Source: an uncultured Spirochaetaceae bacterium | GTDB taxonomy: Bacteria > Spirochaetota > Spirochaetia > Treponematales > Treponemataceae | NCBI GenBank assembly: GCA_902778325.1 | Contig: CACYWZ010000005.1 | Span: 4,347 to 68,346, forward strand | Direction: 5' to 3' | DNA: 64,000 nt | In this document: piece after piece, positions 3,620 to 52,730 of the stretch | How positions within the stretch are numbered: position 1 is the first letter of the stretch | How the letters are laid out: the number at the start of each line of letters is the position of its first letter | The notes under the pieces: model-generated | Seen by the model: the letters and a program-made list of their open reading frames with translations, nothing else | What the model was told of the DNA's origin: nothing | The model's database searches: none | Program-made: the position numbers and the translations under genes

Positions 3620-3865
3620 TCCTCGACTCACTATTGTTTTTCGCTTTTTTCACATGAAAAAGCCTTCGCTCACTAATGAGTCAGCGTTTTTTCGCGTGAA
3701 AATTGCTTCACTCACTAATGAGTCGCGCTTTTTTCAATGCGCTTGGCATGACTCAACGTTGTTTTTGGCAAAACGTATGTACGGCGATGGCAAATCAGTG
3801 TTGTTTTTGGCTCACCGTACGCACGGCGCTCTCGACGCAATGGTGAAACGGCTCACCGTATAAAA
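3620..3865. repeat. Degenerate intergenic array with 41-42-bp period
   Basis: CTCACTA at 3627, 3669 and 3711; GTTGTTTTTGGC at 3758 and 3800; CGTA core at 3774, 3816 and 3857. Contains CTCA-CTAA-TGAG hairpins. Confidence 0.7.
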
Positions 3866-3957
3866 AAACGACACAAGAAACCGACGTTTTTTGTGTACAA
3901 GCACGCCCACTTCTTTTTATCAGATAGTCGTACTATAATGAGAGCAAGAGGCAGAAC

Positions 3958-4350
3958 ATGGGAATCTACTTAAATCCGAACAACGACAACTTTGCGGAAA
4001 TCACGAGCAATGAAACCGACATTGACAAAACCATGATGATAAGCGCGCTCAACAAAATCATGAAAGTGAACAACAAATATGTTTGCGTCTCTCGCCCTCG
4101 CCGATTCGGAAAGACGATTGCCAGCAACATGCTTTCGGCGTACTTTTCAAAAGGAGGTGATTCAAGAGAGCCTTTCGCTCCGTACAAAATCAGCCATGAC
4201 ACCAGCTTCGAGAGCAATTTGAACAAACTGAACGTCATCAAAATCGATGTTAACAGCGAATTCAAGAACGAGCGGGACAAAGAGAACCTTCTGAACAATT
4301 TTCAGAACAAAATTGTTTCTGAGTTCATCGAGCAGTTCATGAAGGATTAA
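3958..4350 (+). pseudogene. N-terminal fragment of an AAA-ATPase-like (PD-(D/E)XK-associated) protein
   Basis: MGIYLNP start and SRPRRFGKT motif, but only 130 aa (homologues are typically about 500 aa); stops 1 nt before the recombinase start. Confidence 0.75.
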
Positions 4351-4351
4351 A

Positions 4352-4993
4352 ATGACATACGGATACATTCGAGTCAGTACAAACAAACAGACCGTAGAAA
4401 ACCAGCGCTTTGAAATCCTTGAGTTTTGCAAAAAGCAACACCTCAGCGTTGACGCATGGATTGAAGAGACCGTCAGCGGCACTGTTGCACCAAAAAGGCG
4501 TGAACTCGGAAAACTCCTTTCGTGCGTGAAGAGCGGCGACATCATAATTTGCTCGGAGCTCTCGCGCCTTGGACGAAGCCTTTTTATGATTATGTCGGTT
4601 TTGAATATCTTAATGGAAAAAGGCGCGCGTGTTTGGACGATAAAAGACAATTTCAGGCTTGGCGACGACATTCAAAGCAAAGTCCTTGCGTTCGCGTTCG
4701 CCCTTAGCGCAGAAATCGAGCGAAATCTTATCAGCCAGCGCACAAAAGAAGCGCTTGAGCGAAAAAAGAGCGAAGGCAAAAAACTAGGGCGTCCGATTGG
4801 AACGCTTGCGAAAAAGAGCAAACTTGATGGCGCAGAATTGGCGATAAGTCTTATGCTTTTTTCGGGGACAAGCATAAATCAAATGTCGAAACTTTACGGA
4901 ATTCACAGGAAAACGATAAAACTTTTCATCTTCAAAAAGAAATTGGATTCTGACACGAACTTTCGAAAGATAAAAAAACTTTTGACGGAATAG
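4352..4993 (+). CDS. Serine recombinase (resolvase/invertase, Mpi-like)
   Basis: YGYIRVST catalytic motif, SELSRLGRS, AEIERNLISQRTKEAL...GKKLGRP, C-terminal HTH. Confidence 0.9.
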   Translation: MTYGYIRVSTNKQTVENQRFEILEFCKKQHLSVDAWIEETVSGTVAPKRRELGKLLSCVKSGDIIICSELSRLGRSLFMIMSVLNILMEKGARVWTIKDNFRLGDDIQSKVLAFAFALSAEIERNLISQRTKEALERKKSEGKKLGRPIGTLAKKSKLDGAELAISLMLFSGTSINQMSKLYGIHRKTIKLFIFKKKLDSDTNFRKIKKLLTE

Positions 4994-5060
4994 AAAAGAG
5001 CGCATATATGTATTATATTTGCATTATGCTATAATCTTTTTTTGAAAAAGGGTGGTAAAA

Positions 5061-50750: not shown

Positions 50751-50861
50751 TCGTCCTCCAAACAAAAAAAGGCAATTCCGACAGCCGCAGGCTGTTCCTA
50801 AAAAGCCATAGACTGTAAAAATTGCCGTTTCAAAAACAGATAAAAATCAACTGACTATCAA

Positions 50862-51476
50862 TTATCTCTTGATAATTTTCTTGATTTCATCGTTCTCGCC
50901 TGACCACCATTTGATATTAGTGCTCAAATGCTGCATCTGAGCATACACATAGTAATGACGTGACTCTGTTTTTCCGTCCGGTGATTTCTCGATAGAAGTC
51001 TTTACTGAACCGACGAGCATCAAGTCAGCGCCAGTTTCGTTTCCGATAGCAGCCACCGTCTCTGGGTTTGTGAAGTCAATCTGTGCCAAGCGCTCAGCAC
51101 GAAGAGCCTCGCGGTCACCAGAATCAGCAACAAAATCAAACACGCCGGAATTGATGAGCGCATTCTCCATCTTCTTTGAGATGATGTCCGTGTGAATCAC
51201 ATCAGCAGGCTCGCTGCTGTCGTTTCGGATACGACCAAGAATAACGACTGGAGGGCGACCGTTTTCCGCTTCGAACTTTGCAATGCGCGGGCTCTGAATT
51301 GCCTCAGCGATAAGACTCTTGCAAACAATACCAATGTCAGTGTCGTTCCAGTTTCCGCTCAAGTCAAGAACAGTCTCGCTGTCAACACGTGTTACCGGGC
51401 TTTTGTTAGAAGCGCAAGATGTGAGCGCCAAAAGAGCCGCCATCGAAAGCGCAAACGCAATCTTTGAAATTTTCAT
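50862..51476 (-). CDS. LpoB/CsgG-like lipoprotein (penicillin-binding protein activator family)
   Basis: LTS-C lipobox; DLSGNWNDTD...IRN..S...GADLMLVGSV pattern. Confidence 0.78.
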   Translation of the reverse strand: MKISKIAFALSMAALLALTSCASNKSPVTRVDSETVLDLSGNWNDTDIGIVCKSLIAEAIQSPRIAKFEAENGRPPVVILGRIRNDSSEPADVIHTDIISKKMENALINSGVFDFVADSGDREALRAERLAQIDFTNPETVAAIGNETGADLMLVGSVKTSIEKSPDGKTESRHYYVYAQMQHLSTNIKWWSGENDEIKKIIKR

Positions 51477-51545
51477 ATCATTCTCCAATAAAGATTGATA
51501 AAACAACAAGGGGCTTTCACCCCTTGCTAAAGCAATCAGAATCGA

Positions 51546-52310
51546 TTACTCGTCGTCTGAAGCAGGCTCTACAACAGCGCCGCTCGGAACAAGAGCATCC
51601 TGAAGCTTTGATGTAAGTGACTGCTTCAAGAGAGTTGACTCTGTTGAATTGTCGCCGACATCGCTCAATGCTGCTTCCATCTGGCGGTCATAAGTATCGT
51701 TGTCCATGAGATAGACGATGTAGTAAACATACTGGTCAGTGTAGAAATCCTTTGTGTCAACCTCGCCGCCCTTTGACTTCTTCTTTGCAGTCTTGAGAGC
51801 CTTCTCCATCTTCTTCCAGCTTGAATATTCTGGAGCGAGAGTGCGCTGGAGAACCCAGTACTCAGACTCTTTTGCAAGACCGTTCAAAACGAGATTGTGC
51901 ATTGAAGCGCTGTAAATCTTTGCAGCCTCGTTCATCGTTGCAACTTCAGTGTCGCTCTTTCCCTCAGACTCAGCCTGAACGACCTCAGCAACAACGCGCT
52001 CGAATTCCTGAGAAATCTGGCTTGCGCCGTTGACCTGACGTGCCCAAGTCTTCAAGAAAGCGAGGTTCGGACCTTCATCAATGATGATGAAAAGGTGGTT
52101 GTCCTTGTAGTCGACATCAAGAGCCTTCGCAATCTTTCTCTTTGAGCCCTCGCGAGTTGCCTTTACCCAGTCAGGAAGGCTTCCGCCTGATGCGCTGTTC
52201 TGGTGGTCAATAATCTTGACTTTTACTTCTTCTGTAACCTTAGTCTTTGCTGACGCTGAAACGAGAGCGAAAGATGCCACGAGCATTGCTGCTGCAATAA
52301 TCTTTTTCAT
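51546..52310 (-). CDS. Exported hypothetical protein
   Basis: Signal peptide; SD ggag; similar in style to the ORF at 47732 (P.W....YYIVY). Confidence 0.7.
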   Translation of the reverse strand: MKKIIAAAMLVASFALVSASAKTKVTEEVKVKIIDHQNSASGGSLPDWVKATREGSKRKIAKALDVDYKDNHLFIIIDEGPNLAFLKTWARQVNGASQISQEFERVVAEVVQAESEGKSDTEVATMNEAAKIYSASMHNLVLNGLAKESEYWVLQRTLAPEYSSWKKMEKALKTAKKKSKGGEVDTKDFYTDQYVYYIVYLMDNDTYDRQMEAALSDVGDNSTESTLLKQSLTSKLQDALVPSGAVVEPASDDE

Positions 52311-52482
52311 AAAGATCTCCTTATTGACAAGATTCAAGGCGTTAAGCCCTGCTTATACAATACAATATTCAAGAAAAGAATACTGTTGTCAACCAAAAAT
52401 ACTAACACTATTTTTGTGTTATTTCAATGAAAAAGACTTTTCTGAGTCATAATCGCCAAATTTTTCAAAAAAAACGCCCTCT

Positions 52483-52730
52483 CAAGCGCGCCACTTAACG
52501 AAGGAAAAAACAAAGTCAGCGCGTTAAGCGCACTTAAACGCCCGCCAAGAAAAAAAGGAAGCAATTAAGTCGACTTAACGACGTGCCAGAAAAAAAAGGA
52601 GGCAATTAAGTGCACTTAATGACGTCCCAGAAAAAAAAGGAGCGCGTTAAGTCGACTTAACGACTCGCCAGAAAAAAAAGTGAGCCGTTAAGTGCACTTA
52701 ATGACAAAAAAAAATTTTTTTCATTAAGTC
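52483..52730. repeat. 41-bp-period array of 14-bp palindromes
   Basis: TTAAG(CGCA/TCGA/TGCA)CTTAA at 52524, 52565, 52606, 52647 and 52688, separated by CCAGAAAAAAAAGG-like linkers. Confidence 0.93.

Follow-up and report, generated by a model that had tools for sequence, protein, structure and literature searches.

A common 41-42 bp unit length across many families of palindromic intergenic arrays in a Treponema genome

The intergenic DNA of an uncultured Treponema carries hundreds of short palindromic tandem arrays, which belong to many sequence families and share a unit length of 41-42 bp. These arrays may tentatively be regarded as one big, fast-evolving, non-coding superfamily of REP/MITE-like elements, the unit length of which would be held by a protein-spacing constraint acting at the DNA level, an account that is put forward with slightly less than even confidence. 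Such a superfamily would resemble REP/BIME elements in its location and MITEs in its spread. Within the window (the whole stretch of 64,000 nucleotides analysed here), the first-pass annotation had reported the 41-42 bp period at seven loci; TRF calls six of these sites, and the seventh (42640) is recovered through its recurring palindromic motif.

Extent and period of the arrays

In the 3.35 Mb source genome (G000), TRF identified 341 arrays with a period of 40-43 bp, which represent 1.85% of the DNA and sort into about 135 sequence families. Such arrays are present in 50% of the gaps between genes that measure 300-499 bp and in 48% of those of at least 500 bp. The genome-wide distribution of periods is not flat: the minimum period is 40-43 bp at about 300 of the 626 tandem-repeat loci of the assembly, with harmonics at 82-84 and 123-126 bp, and the commonest single value is 41 (188 arrays, versus 130 with a period of 42). 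A TRF-independent scan for three serial occurrences of a 12-mer, with a spacing anywhere between 15 and 80 bp and outside the TRF arrays, returned matches solely at 40-43 bp, apart from coding repeats of 63/69 bp. The same arrays were found in an independent long-contig metagenome assembly of the species (96.5% identity). Chance is ruled out genome-wide as the source of the 41-42 bp period. The real scale of the phenomenon lies far beyond what a 64-kb window could show.

About 75% of the arrays are clearly intergenic, against a non-coding background of 11%, and the open reading frames that overlap arrays are the ones created by the repeat itself. The true coding repeats of the genome are of the LRR type (63/69/138 bp) and have no palindrome. 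The idea that the arrays are relics of 14-codon coding repeats was rejected, given the predominance of period 41 over period 42 and the mostly intergenic location.

Arrays of the window and plan of the unit

No strand is assigned to any of the window arrays, whose neighbours are ordinary housekeeping genes (Pfam), the genes flanking arrays in general being diverse. The array at 3602-3736 (42 bp x 3.2; TRF and sequence) is preceded by the stop codon of an FGGY sugar kinase gene (2027-3514; Pfam), and each of its units holds two small palindromes, TTTTTCA-CA-TGAAAAA and ACTCA-CTAA-TGAGT; it is identical in three further assemblies of the species and its ssDNA fold has z = -3.1. Two TRF arrays, at 17376-17557 (42 bp x 4.3) and 22201-22326 (42 bp x 3.0), belong to F0, the largest family with 23 loci, and flank in the same orientation a type I RM (HsdM) and Fic gene block (Pfam). 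The F0 unit joins the palindrome TTTGTAA..TTATAAA, the arms of which covary, to the conserved linker CGCCGTC(G/A)G(G/T)GA(A/C)(C/G)TCGGAACG, and a search for this family gave 55 matches in G000 and none in 30 relatives. The array at 27054-27277 (TRF), situated in the divergent gap between a Germane-domain gene and a phosphofructokinase gene (Pfam), is an 83 bp higher-order repeat (x 2.7) in which units of 41 and 42 bp alternate, with AAATTG...CAATTT arms in common and inner hairpins that differ; exactly one 83 bp unit is absent in another strain, and the ssDNA fold has z = -6.1. At 31022-31141 (41 bp x 3.0; TRF), the unit is formed by a TGGGAGC(G/A)CTCCCA palindrome and a T-rich spacer, the array being identical in another assembly (ssDNA fold z = -3.4).

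The site that TRF does not call, at 42642-42863, was delimited by motif search and sequence. It holds six copies of AAAAGA-TT-TCTTTT, at 42642, 42683, 42724, ~42765, 42806 and 42848, with spacings of 41, 41, 41, 41 and 42 bp; the motif search gave 18 matches against 8.4 expected, those in register being the ones at 42642, 42683, 42724, 42806 and 42848. Its spacers are unrelated to one another, and the site is a degenerate "repeat-spacer"-like member of the 41-42 bp class. A complete composite element of family F2 occupies 52480-52752 and includes the TRF array 52507-52705 (41 bp x 4.6). In this element a leader with a half-palindrome (..CCACTTAACGAAGG..) is followed by the units, composed of TTAAGT-SS-ACTTAA and CCAGAAAAAAAAGG, and then by a conserved tail (TGAC-A9T7-CATTAAGTCG-TGTGAATTTTTTCACAG), the ends of the element being imperfect inverted repeats. 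The genome also carries a parallel class of palindrome arrays with a period of 23 bp, which does not correspond to an integral number of helical turns. Its representative in the window, the hairpin array at 47566-47676 (23 bp x 4.6; TRF), has the unit CGTACA-GCATAA-TGTACG plus AGTGT, begins 2 bp past the stop codon of a MetA-like gene and is followed by a canonical bidirectional terminator (47688-47722); its family occurs also in the relative G008.

Across the 41-42 bp class the unit follows a single plan, namely a dyad-symmetric site of 12-24 bp, a G/C clamp some 10 bp away from the dyad and a spacer rich in A/T, and units are head-to-tail direct repeats (TRF), adjacent arrays being inverted only occasionally. 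The combination of a short palindrome with an A/T tract, described earlier for the window, is confirmed by stems of at least 6 bp in 109 of the 135 families, with loops mostly of 0-4 nt. The companion claim that the arrays have no common sequence stands insofar as the families differ, but 138 family pairs reach at least 60% identity (1 expected by chance) and all families have in common a compositional template, in which the A+T profile dips towards G/C at a distance of 9-11 bp from the dyad. Conservation is stronger in the arms than in the spacers (identity 0.84 versus 0.75; arms higher in 169 of 225 arrays, p = 5e-14), a comparison somewhat biased by the palindrome having been picked on the consensus. 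In some arrays, of the type found at 42640, C3:43358 and C4:84750, a partly palindromic repeat alternates with variable spacers and the 41-42 bp register is exact although the spacers are unrelated. The palindrome and the register are in this way shown to be kept while spacers drift.

Gene context, dispersal and origin of the common length

The symmetry of the palindromes is shown to work at the DNA level, with no dependence on the transcript strand and no G·U bias. Unit orientation shows no relation to the direction of flanking genes, to GC skew or to gene-strand bias; the + strand is A-rich in 18 of the 25 contexts of type "++" and in 27 of the 35 of type "--". Mismatches in the sense-strand arms are about as often G·T (239) as A·C (220; p = 0.40). 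In an intrinsic terminator, a hairpin rich in G+C precedes a T run on the transcribed strand, which ties the orientation of the terminator to the upstream gene. Terminators were rejected as an identity for the arrays because the strand of the A/T tract is unrelated to gene direction and 44 arrays lie in divergent promoter gaps.

Some E. coli REP/BIME elements have been shown to stabilise or terminate transcripts. The arrays could accordingly be viewed as RNA elements, that is, transcribed hairpins in 3' UTRs or between cistrons that perform these tasks, with a unit length reflecting the hairpin and linker geometry suited to an RNA-binding or processing factor. The arrays are nearer to gene 3' ends (median 73 bp) than to 5' ends (125 bp) and are enriched in convergent gaps (72/423), single-stranded folding is good for four of the six window arrays, and the 23 bp class often begins 1-30 bp after a stop codon, as does its member in the window, placed between stop codon and terminator; moreover, some 23 bp families have a TTATGC loop in common while their stems covary. 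Against these points, an RNA role leaves unexplained the orientation data, the arrays in divergent promoter gaps and the balance of mismatches; loops of 0-2 nt are too short for hairpins, the other two window arrays fold no better than shuffled sequence, and no Rfam family matches the arrays. The RNA explanation is consequently judged quite unlikely. The lack of any link to gene orientation, of G·U bias and of a RAYT gene means that the arrays are not terminators, RNA hairpins or classical REPs.

Whole arrays are shown to have been copied into new intergenic sites, and resident arrays to gain and lose whole units and to be partly homogenised. Families occupy up to 23 loci, 93 of the 135 being present at a single locus, and solo units are rare (49, versus about 1500 within arrays). 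The F2 element, about 270 bp long in the alignment, keeps its leader (..GACTTAACGA) and tail (TCATTAAGTCG..) at up to 14 loci, with inverted ends and about 4.5 units at nearly every locus, and so presents the features by which MITEs are recognised, i.e. terminal inverted repeats, a length within 50-1000 bp and several loci. Clear inverted ends are limited to certain families: F5 is flanked by inverted CTTTCAATAGAAAAAG, and terminal inverted repeats are not evident for F0 and F3. In F2, F5, F13, F14, F19 and F30, units at the same position in different loci are more alike than units of the same array, and arrays with heterogeneous spacers have been duplicated with the spacer order preserved (C6:63840/C23:608 and C15:2512/C62:1906). 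Between two strains at 96.5% identity, 20 of the 22 indels of at least 20 bp fall in arrays, most of them being exact unit multiples. The same comparison gave no presence/absence polymorphism of a whole array, so that active transposition is not demonstrated; it offered no empty site, and in the alignment of F2 loci the ends are too fuzzy for target-site duplications to be delimited. This dispersed, mobile-element-like nature of the arrays was missed in the first reading of the window.

Two sources had initially been proposed for the period, a process that duplicates a fixed length of DNA and a common constraint. According to the former, a replication, repair or integrase-type process would duplicate any DNA in quanta of 41-42 bp, de novo at each locus, which agrees with the many single-locus families and with strain differences in exact unit multiples. 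Whole-unit gain and loss is, however, expected of any tandem repeat, and the units are not arbitrary DNA, since palindromes and the common template are near-universal. Multi-locus families and whole-array copies exist as well, and the arrays with unrelated spacers, which keep their register, cannot come from duplication. A mutational ruler of this kind is therefore regarded as very unlikely.

The distribution of the arrays bears on a further alternative. In Treponema the 41-42 bp class is limited to a small subclade: G000 has far more of it than G004, and G008 and G012 have traces. In the Bacteroidales, two MAGs were found to contain many intergenic palindrome arrays of 21, 23 and 41/42 bp period, unrelated in sequence and built on palindromes other than those of Treponema, where the dominant period is 41 bp and not 42 or 21 bp. 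The period could simply reflect ancestry, a single selfish MITE-like repeat of 41-42 bp having given rise to all families with no ruler and no selection. The continuum of similarity among families, their common template, the dispersal of whole arrays and a subclade restriction fitting a lineage-specific burst all speak for this possibility. Neighbouring units, however, differ by about one indel position per pair, from which a spread of 2.2-3.1 bp is predicted (indel/substitution ratio 0.117), whereas the observed between-family SD of length differences is 0.87 bp; unit length thus varies about 3-fold less than the arrays' own indel rate predicts. In addition, common descent does not account for the exact register in arrays with unalignable spacers, nor for the same discrete lengths in Bacteroidales with other sequences. 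Ancestry alone is rated as rather improbable.

A proposed spacing constraint, candidate proteins and known systems

The explanation preferred here is that arrays are copied whole to new intergenic sites and then change by whole units, under a constraint on the distance between dyad sites. A putative dimeric DNA-binding protein would bind adjacent sites cooperatively, and the common period would arise because such binding needs the sites to sit 41-42 bp apart, or about four helical turns. The protein may be an enzyme responsible for moving or recombining the elements, or else a protein of the host with a nucleoid or regulatory function, and out-of-register units would be lost or cease propagating. 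Of the two sources initially proposed, a common constraint fits better, given the approximately 3-fold tighter lengths and the excess of arm over spacer conservation. Its specific form, same-face phasing for a nucleoid protein, was not shown, as A/T tracts display no phasing at ~10.3 bp, the 23 bp class does not correspond to whole turns and HU-like/DUF4469 genes are not adjacent to 41-42 bp arrays. The 23 bp period and the unphased tracts count also against the helical-spacing explanation itself, and more than 30 palindrome types are hard to reconcile with a single sequence-specific protein.

A bolder version is that a hitherto undescribed protein-DNA system, present in Bacteroidales and in the Treponema clade (probably by HGT), detects dyad symmetry through the shape of the DNA, not its sequence, and sets the registers of 21, 23 and 41-42 bp in intergenic repeat elements; this is considered unlikely, if somewhat less so than descent from one repeat. 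If it existed, such a system would be a molecular ruler for the birth, spread or retention of minisatellites that fill about half of the long intergenic gaps, and the HU-like/DUF4469 family would be its first candidate component. Proteins of this family (PF14848+PF14734) might dock on the arrays and organise the nucleoid. The three genomes that carry the most periodic arrays in the sample, G000, G004 and G008, have 16, 14 and 26 copies of their genes, respectively, and most relatives 0-3; the family is typical of Bacteroidales, which carry such arrays too, and its genes directly precede 23 bp arrays in four genomes of two phyla. The 41-42 bp arrays nevertheless lie farther from these genes (median 4.8 kb) than from random genes (1.9 kb), 100 kb of genomes from other genera with 9-20 copies contain no arrays of 41-42 bp, G012 has one 41 bp array and no HU-like match, and no DNA target has been published for the family. 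Since G000, G004 and G008 are mutually related, the correlation is not phylogenetically independent. A docking role for these proteins, named as candidates in the first reading of the window, seems very doubtful.

Gene searches in G000 tied no binding protein, transposase or recombinase to the arrays. The search for Y1/RAYT genes (PF01797) had no match in G000, while it was positive in 13 of 31 relatives and in the E. coli control. Multi-copy genes are very few in the assembly, namely IS1595 (2 copies) and those for Rpn-like PD-(D/E)XK nucleases, which do not track the arrays, being equally abundant in array-poor relatives. No resident autonomous element or transposase with matching ends was found in the assembly, a draft MAG in which IS copies can be missed.

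Work on the intergenic repeats of bacteria (REP, BIME, MITEs, minisatellites) usually treats each sequence family separately; here, one length rule applies genome-wide across about 135 families. A common period needs a common cause, as anticipated for the window, and no named or described system covers the 41-42 bp arrays or accounts for their cross-family rule. The lengths 21, 23 and 41/42 bp recur in another phylum, and 41 and 23 are the respective lengths of the two published Porphyromonas gingivalis repeats. Lengths maintained across families and phyla point to an unrecognised factor, perhaps an enzyme of mobilisation or else a protein akin to those of chromatin, that would read dyad symmetry and spacing rather than sequence. 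Its identification would explain a sizeable share of the non-coding DNA of gut and oral anaerobes, and the conserved module of HU-like gene and 23 bp array is a testable entry to a family with no known DNA target. At a practical level, the arrays are the main source of large inter-strain indels and break short-read assemblies, which matters for strain typing and MAG quality.

The architecture of the arrays, with phased dyad sites in tandem, is that of ParB/ParR centromeres and plasmid iterons, which are made of tandem units of ~20-43 bp, each with a dyad-symmetric protein site; F-plasmid sopC, for instance, has 12 x 43 bp with a 16 bp palindrome. In such systems the site and register are conserved and the spacers matter less, and the HU-like gene followed by a 23 bp array is reminiscent of the DNA-binding gene placed directly before its own array. 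Centromeres and iterons, however, occur once per replicon, beside their own partition or replication genes and with a single sequence, whereas Treponema has hundreds of chromosomal loci, dozens of palindrome types and no adjacent par/rep genes. An identity as partition centromere or iteron array was rejected in view of the 341 chromosomal loci, their diverse neighbours and the lack of plasmid or phage similarity in sequence searches.

REP/BIME elements of Enterobacteria and Pseudomonas are likewise short imperfect palindromes, abundant, extragenic, species-specific, clustered between genes mostly near 3' ends, and hot spots of variation, all of which applies to the arrays. Yet successive units of a REP/BIME cluster have opposite orientations, and the clusters require a RAYT (Y1 transposase) gene, while the Treponema arrays are direct tandem repeats in a genome with no RAYT, show no G·U bias and maintain their period across unrelated families. 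A RAYT-dependent REP/BIME (or REPIN) identity was rejected for lack of a Y1/HUH gene and of alternating orientation. The arrays of the 42640 type recall CRISPR, TIGR and VIPR arrays in alternating a conserved repeat with variable spacers, but those systems have periods of 60-79, 18 or 5 nt (bioRxiv 10.64898/2026.10.21.760802), and Treponema spacers are usually near-identical within an array and common to dispersed copies. CRISPR/TIGR guide arrays were rejected on the basis of the 41-42 bp period, the repeated spacers, the housekeeping neighbours and the absence of an effector gene.

The nearest published relatives of the arrays are PgRS/MITE464 and BrickBuilt of P. gingivalis, MITEs with internal tandem repeats of 41 and 23 nt, respectively (PMC4596501). 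They are intergenic composites in which a leader, a tail and terminal inverted repeats surround an internal minisatellite, they have 10-20 dispersed copies per family and vary between strains by whole units, and their two unit lengths are those of both Treponema classes. In P. gingivalis each length belongs to a single sequence family, the TIRs of which are of IS5 type and match resident ISPg elements (PMC4596501), whereas in Treponema about 135 families of differing palindromes are spread over 341 loci and no matching IS or transposase was found. While the P. gingivalis study (PMC4596501) neither reports nor explains a cross-family length rule, such a rule holds in Treponema.

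The 41-42 bp period in the window and across the genome

The first-pass annotation of this DNA had described intergenic repeats at seven window loci sharing a period of 41-42 bp, and this period was recovered at each of them. TRF called 41-42 bp arrays at 3602-3736, 17376-17557, 22201-22326, 31022-31141 and 52507-52705, and an array with an 83 bp higher-order unit (41+42) at 27054-27277. The seventh site, at 42640, was confirmed by reading the sequence although TRF makes no call there: the palindromic motif AAAAGA-TT-TCTTTT recurs in register at 42642, 42683, 42724, ~42765, 42806 and 42848, that is, at spacings of 41, 41, 41, 41 and 42 bp, with unrelated intervening spacers.

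The period extends well beyond the window. In the draft genome that contains it (G000; 3.35 Mb, 173 contigs; the window is C5:4347-68346), TRF reported 626 tandem loci, about 300 of them with 40-43 bp as their shortest period, with harmonics at 82-84 and 123-126 bp. When every locus with a 40-43 bp row is counted there are 341 arrays (15 at 40 bp, 188 at 41 bp, 130 at 42 bp and 8 at 43 bp), with a median of 4.3 and a maximum of 12 copies, and array DNA makes up 1.85% of the genome (61.9 kb). A TRF-independent scan for 12-mers with three successive occurrences at a spacing anywhere between 15 and 80 bp, with the TRF arrays excluded, gave matches at 40-43 bp only, coding repeats at 63/69 bp aside. 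The same arrays are present in an independent metagenome assembly (contigs up to 970 kb, 96.5% identical to G000), where 105 kb contain 34 tandem loci, 26 of them repeating every 41, 42 or 84 bp. Together, these three lines of evidence exclude an assembly artefact as well as the flat period distribution that the earlier annotation had named as the outcome against it, the genome-wide distribution being peaked at 40-43 bp. Several G000 contigs break inside arrays of the type of F0, the largest family (e.g., C16/C12, C110/C125, C87/C103, C31/C147 and C56/C1), and these breaks are spanned by the long contigs L172, L164, L171, L182 and L188 of metagenome Ga0256405. The G000 count is therefore an underestimate, and the repeats fragment short-read MAGs.

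The other outcome named against the earlier reading was an origin of the arrays as relics of 14-codon coding repeats. By a crude, ORF-based gene call (88.6% of G000 coding), 236 arrays are less than 10% coding and 68 are at least 90% "coding", most of these 68 lying inside ORFs created by the stop-free repeat itself. This intergenic siting and the fact that 41 bp is the commonest period exclude the 14-codon origin. Arrays occupy 24% of the gaps of 200-299 bp, 50% of those of 300-499 bp and 48% of those of at least 500 bp; they occur in 72/423 convergent, 44/421 divergent and 117/1895 co-directional gaps, at a median distance of 73 bp from gene 3' ends versus 125 bp from 5' ends. In the window their neighbours are ordinary genes (FGGY kinase, HsdM, Fic, a GGDEF/EAL protein, phosphofructokinase and a CNNM transporter). 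Two other kinds of repeat were seen alongside: coding 69/138 bp periods correspond to BspA-like leucine-rich repeats (LRR) of 23 residues (C22:12069-13663, C37:19241-20939, C95:2689-2999 and others) and are unrelated, despite the common number, to the non-coding 23 bp arrays considered below, and a 24 bp x 3.3 tandem array (CGTAGAACAACCCTTCGGTAACG) at window 61063-61141 overlaps the start of the ORF at 60116-61123 (-).

Unit design and the constraint on its length

The arrays constitute a genome-wide superfamily of palindrome-plus-spacer units. Clustering of unit consensuses yielded about 135 families (the largest with 23, 15, 14, 13 and 13 loci; 93 singletons), almost all with a near-perfect palindrome. 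Stems of 6-11 bp with loops of mostly 0-4 nt are present in 109 families, where the whole palindrome spans 12-24 bp (mode 18); the remaining ~23 bp of the unit form a spacer that often carries an A or T run. The combination of palindrome and A/T tract noticed at the outset thus holds genome-wide, the palindromes being near-universal.

The description of the families as unrelated stands only in part. Their sequences and palindromes do differ, and at least 68 separate groups remain after linking, yet 138 consensus pairs share at least 60% identity versus 1 in the null. Given palindrome types also reappear with other spacers, TTTGCA-n-TGCAAA being found in six families and TCCTTA-nnn-TAAGGA, TGGGAG-nn-CTCCCA, AAACCGC..GCGGTTT and TTCGGG..CCCGAA recurring as well; reciprocally, families F2 (TTAAGTGCACTTAA) and F3 (AAATTTAAATTT) differ in palindrome and have the linker CCAGAAAAAAAAGGA in common. 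When aligned on the dyad, all families follow one compositional template, with an A+T content of 0.70-0.74 at 4-8 bp from the centre, a fall to 0.38-0.50 at 9-11 bp (a G/C clamp) and high values again at 14-18 bp. These links and the common template indicate that the families are variants of one design. A unit made of two 21 bp modules was rejected: a 21 bp half-period appears in 12/135 families and a strong second palindrome in 9%.

Several observations bear on the level at which the symmetry acts. The A/T-rich unit strand shows no relation to the direction of flanking genes, and this independence rules out terminators or promoters; an orientation set by the replication strand is likewise ruled out, as unit orientation correlates neither with local GC skew nor with gene-strand bias. 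Across all G000 contigs, A-rich units on the + strand outnumber T-rich ones by about 2:1 (118 versus 62), an excess that probably reflects how the assembler orients contigs rather than biology, because most (large) contigs are AT-skew positive. If the hairpins were selected in RNA, a clear excess of G·U would be expected. In co-directional contexts, sense-strand arm mismatches are G·T in 239 and A·C in 220 cases (p = 0.40), and in the 23 bp class 21 and 19, respectively. Single-strand folding of six window arrays against shuffles gave z-scores of -3.1 to -6.1 for four of them, and was not better than the shuffles for those at 17376 (z = +0.7) and 42642 (z = -0.8). Furthermore, a loop of 0-2 nt leaves too little room for a genuine hairpin, and no Rfam family matched in the window. 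Strand-specific RNA hairpins were rejected on the lack of G·U bias and of Rfam matches, and from the whole of these data it is concluded that the symmetry acts on duplex DNA, or alike on either strand. Intrinsic curvature can also be dismissed as the design principle, since the A/T tracts within units are unphased, with no AA/TT enrichment at ~10.3 bp.

The length of the unit is held more tightly than its sequence divergence would allow. Adjacent units differ by 16.7% substitutions and 2.3% indels (indel/substitution ratio 0.117), from which a rough calculation for families diverged past recognition gives an expected length SD of ~2.2-3.1 bp; the value actually found between families is 0.87 bp (0.61 bp for family periods), a large gap even if the calculation is rough. 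Within arrays, conservation is 0.84 in the arms of the palindrome, 0.74 in the loop and 0.75 in the spacer, the arms exceeding the rest in 169/225 arrays (p = 5e-14, with some bias from the palindrome having been chosen on the consensus). The arms of F0 show covariation, with pair 12-21 U-A in 12 loci, C-G in 10 and unpaired in none, and loci of the 42640 type retain palindrome and register with unalignable spacers. Taken together, these features argue for a stabilising constraint on the dyad site plus its spacing. Neither pure inheritance of a common length nor a process that duplicates arbitrary DNA accounts for them.

Dispersal and turnover of whole arrays

The superfamily is dispersed as whole arrays and changes by whole units. 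Solo units are scarce, with 49 matches outside arrays versus ~1500 units inside. F2, which includes the window array at 52507, is a composite element of ~270 bp consisting of a leader with a half-palindrome (..GACTTAACGA..), ~4.5 units at almost all loci and a conserved tail (TGA-A8T8-CA, TTAAGTCG, TGTGAATTTTTTCACAG), its two ends being imperfect inverted repeats of each other. Arrays of family F5 are flanked by inverted CTTTCAATAGAAAAAG, and those of F0 tend to open with the right arm and close with the left arm of the palindrome. In F2, F5, F13, F14, F19 and F30 a unit resembles the unit at the same position elsewhere more than its own neighbours, indicating that whole arrays were copied, whereas in F0, F3, F6, F10, F23 and F28 the neighbours are closer, indicating local homogenisation or expansion. 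Some arrays with heterogeneous spacers also have dispersed copies in which the spacer order is kept (e.g., C6:63840 = C23:608; C15:2512 = C62:1906).

Strain comparisons showed the 3602 and 31022 arrays to be identical and the 27054 array to differ by exactly one 83 bp unit. Relative to the strain at 96.5% identity, 20 of the 22 indels of at least 20 bp fall inside arrays, and the array indels are mostly exact unit multiples (41, 42, 84, 126 and 23 bp); no presence/absence of a whole array was found in the sample compared. At orthologous sites of the relatives G004, G008 and G012, inspected for empty sites, genes are 73-79% identical and synteny ends at contig ends.

Two local features were recorded in the window. 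Two F0 arrays in the same orientation (window 17376-22326) flank a ~4.6 kb block with genes for a Fic/DOC protein (18774-20075) and for the type I methylase HsdM (hsdM, 20685-22130); either the block is an island inserted into an array or the arrays were recombination substrates. Assembly ERZ1041357 departs from the window at ~3897 (L132:3990-4053), ~160 bp past the 3602 array, and is without the AAA-ATPase-like fragment (3958-4350) and resolvase gene present in the window and two other assemblies, which is an insertion polymorphism near that array.

Distribution, the 23 bp class and candidate partners

The 41-42 bp class is restricted to a subclade of Treponema. F0 has 55 matches in G000 and 0 in 30 relatives. 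Three same-genus relatives sampled over 100 kb each have 0 arrays of 41-42 bp (~10 expected at the G000 density), and 17 further relatives (10-50 kb each) gave one 41 bp array, in G012. G004 and G008 have gene identities of 73-79% to G000: G004 has five 41-42 bp arrays in 125 kb, one of a family common to G000, and G008 has two in 136 kb plus ten 23 bp arrays. These counts place the greatest expansion in the species of G000. A 37 bp x 13.4 non-coding array (GTTTGAAGTGAAGGTGTCAGACACTTTTTTAGCATAC) was seen in another Treponematales genus (L089:14934-15476, G098:C4).

Outside the phylum, the pattern TTAAGTSSACTTAA-N25-29-TTAAGTSSACTTAA matched two species genomes only, both Bacteroidales, one with a 21 bp x 12.5 and the other with a 42 bp x 8.8 array on the TTAAGTSSACTTAA palindrome. 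The same discrete periods were found there: a Prevotellaceae MAG (G219) has ten 21 bp, three 23 bp and two 41 bp arrays in 174 kb, and a Paludibacteraceae MAG four 21 bp, three 23 bp and one 42 bp array in 199 kb, with palindromes differing across all arrays sampled in both. The same 174 kb of G219 (L143-L152) also holds 17 arrays of 7-8 bp period.

G000 itself carries 46-48 intergenic 23 bp arrays. They fall into 27 families, every one with a hairpin of its own, and start within 30 bp of a stop codon in 43% of cases and within 100 bp in 76%. A period of 23 bp does not correspond to an integral number of helical turns, which weakens a purely helical-phase account of the whole phenomenon. Such an array lies at the 3' end of 10/16 genes for HU-like proteins (HU-DNA_bdg+DUF4469, PF14848+PF14734), versus ~1.6% expected for any gene; beyond the array come the SD and start codon of the gene that follows. 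Examples in G000 are C86:666-1606, C95:709-1563, C131:6451-7278, C17:4652-5451, C90:1935-2734, C8:12659-13444 and C16:48466-49443. In another Treponema genus (G088 C1:704651-705470) the HU-like gene is followed by a 23 bp array at 705,376 and then by an LRR gene. The module was found at 3/4 testable HU-like genes of the two Bacteroidales MAGs and occurs at G220 C23:25450-26392 and C73:58572-59365 and at G219 C34:3948-4741. Several 23 bp families have the loop TTATGC/GCATAA in common and stems that differ compensatorily (CACA/TGTG, GCAGA/TCTGC, CGTACA/TGTACG), among them the arrays at window 47566-47676, C90:1935-1986, C86:1512-1606 and, in G008, L079:3899-3984; the window's 23 bp family is also present in G008.

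The proposed co-occurrence of the 41-42 bp arrays with HU-like/DUF4469 proteins did not survive comparison. Copy numbers do seem to support it, with 16 copies in G000, 14 in G004 and 26 in G008 versus 0-3 in most of 27 relatives, but these three genomes are related, so the correlation is not phylogenetically independent. Moreover, the 41-42 bp arrays of G000 are not near HU-like genes, and other-genus genomes with 9-20 copies (up to 20 in G098 in an order-wide survey) have no such arrays in 100 kb; HU-like proteins were thus rejected as partners of this class. A Y1/RAYT transposase (IS200) was rejected as a candidate, being absent from G000, and so were Rpn-like PD-(D/E)XK nucleases, whose multiple copies are just as numerous in relatives poor in arrays. 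Multi-copy genes are very few in G000 (IS1595 has two copies), and the search for gene families enriched beside 41-42 bp arrays gave nothing convincing, the top family having 13/45 members facing an array. Plasmid and phage similarity searches returned none, and a database look-up of the protein beside an F2 array found its exact sequence not on record. The register could be set by a dimeric protein that binds adjoining dyads cooperatively, a possibility that we would place slightly short of an even chance; such a protein might be either an enzyme that mobilises the elements or a nucleoid or regulatory protein of the host.

Periodic intergenic arrays were surveyed in 2026 (bioRxiv 10.64898/2026.10.21.760802), the only periods listed there being 60-79, 18, 5 and 10 nt, and in our literature search for a multi-family length rule no description was found, only single-family elements of P. 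gingivalis surfacing. For the HU-like proteins, no published DNA target of the family was found, and T. denticola TDE_2259 is a family member (PMC12724145). The G088 module matches the TDE_2259-lrrA arrangement of T. denticola, and the succession of a DNA-binding gene and its own array in the HU module resembles sopB-sopC. The IS5-type MITEs of P. gingivalis contain repeats of 41 nt (PgRS/MITE464) and 23 nt (BrickBuilt) (PMC4596501), unit lengths that agree with the periods of the Bacteroidales MAGs. These elements are, however, single-family, whereas the length rule in G000 is multi-family.
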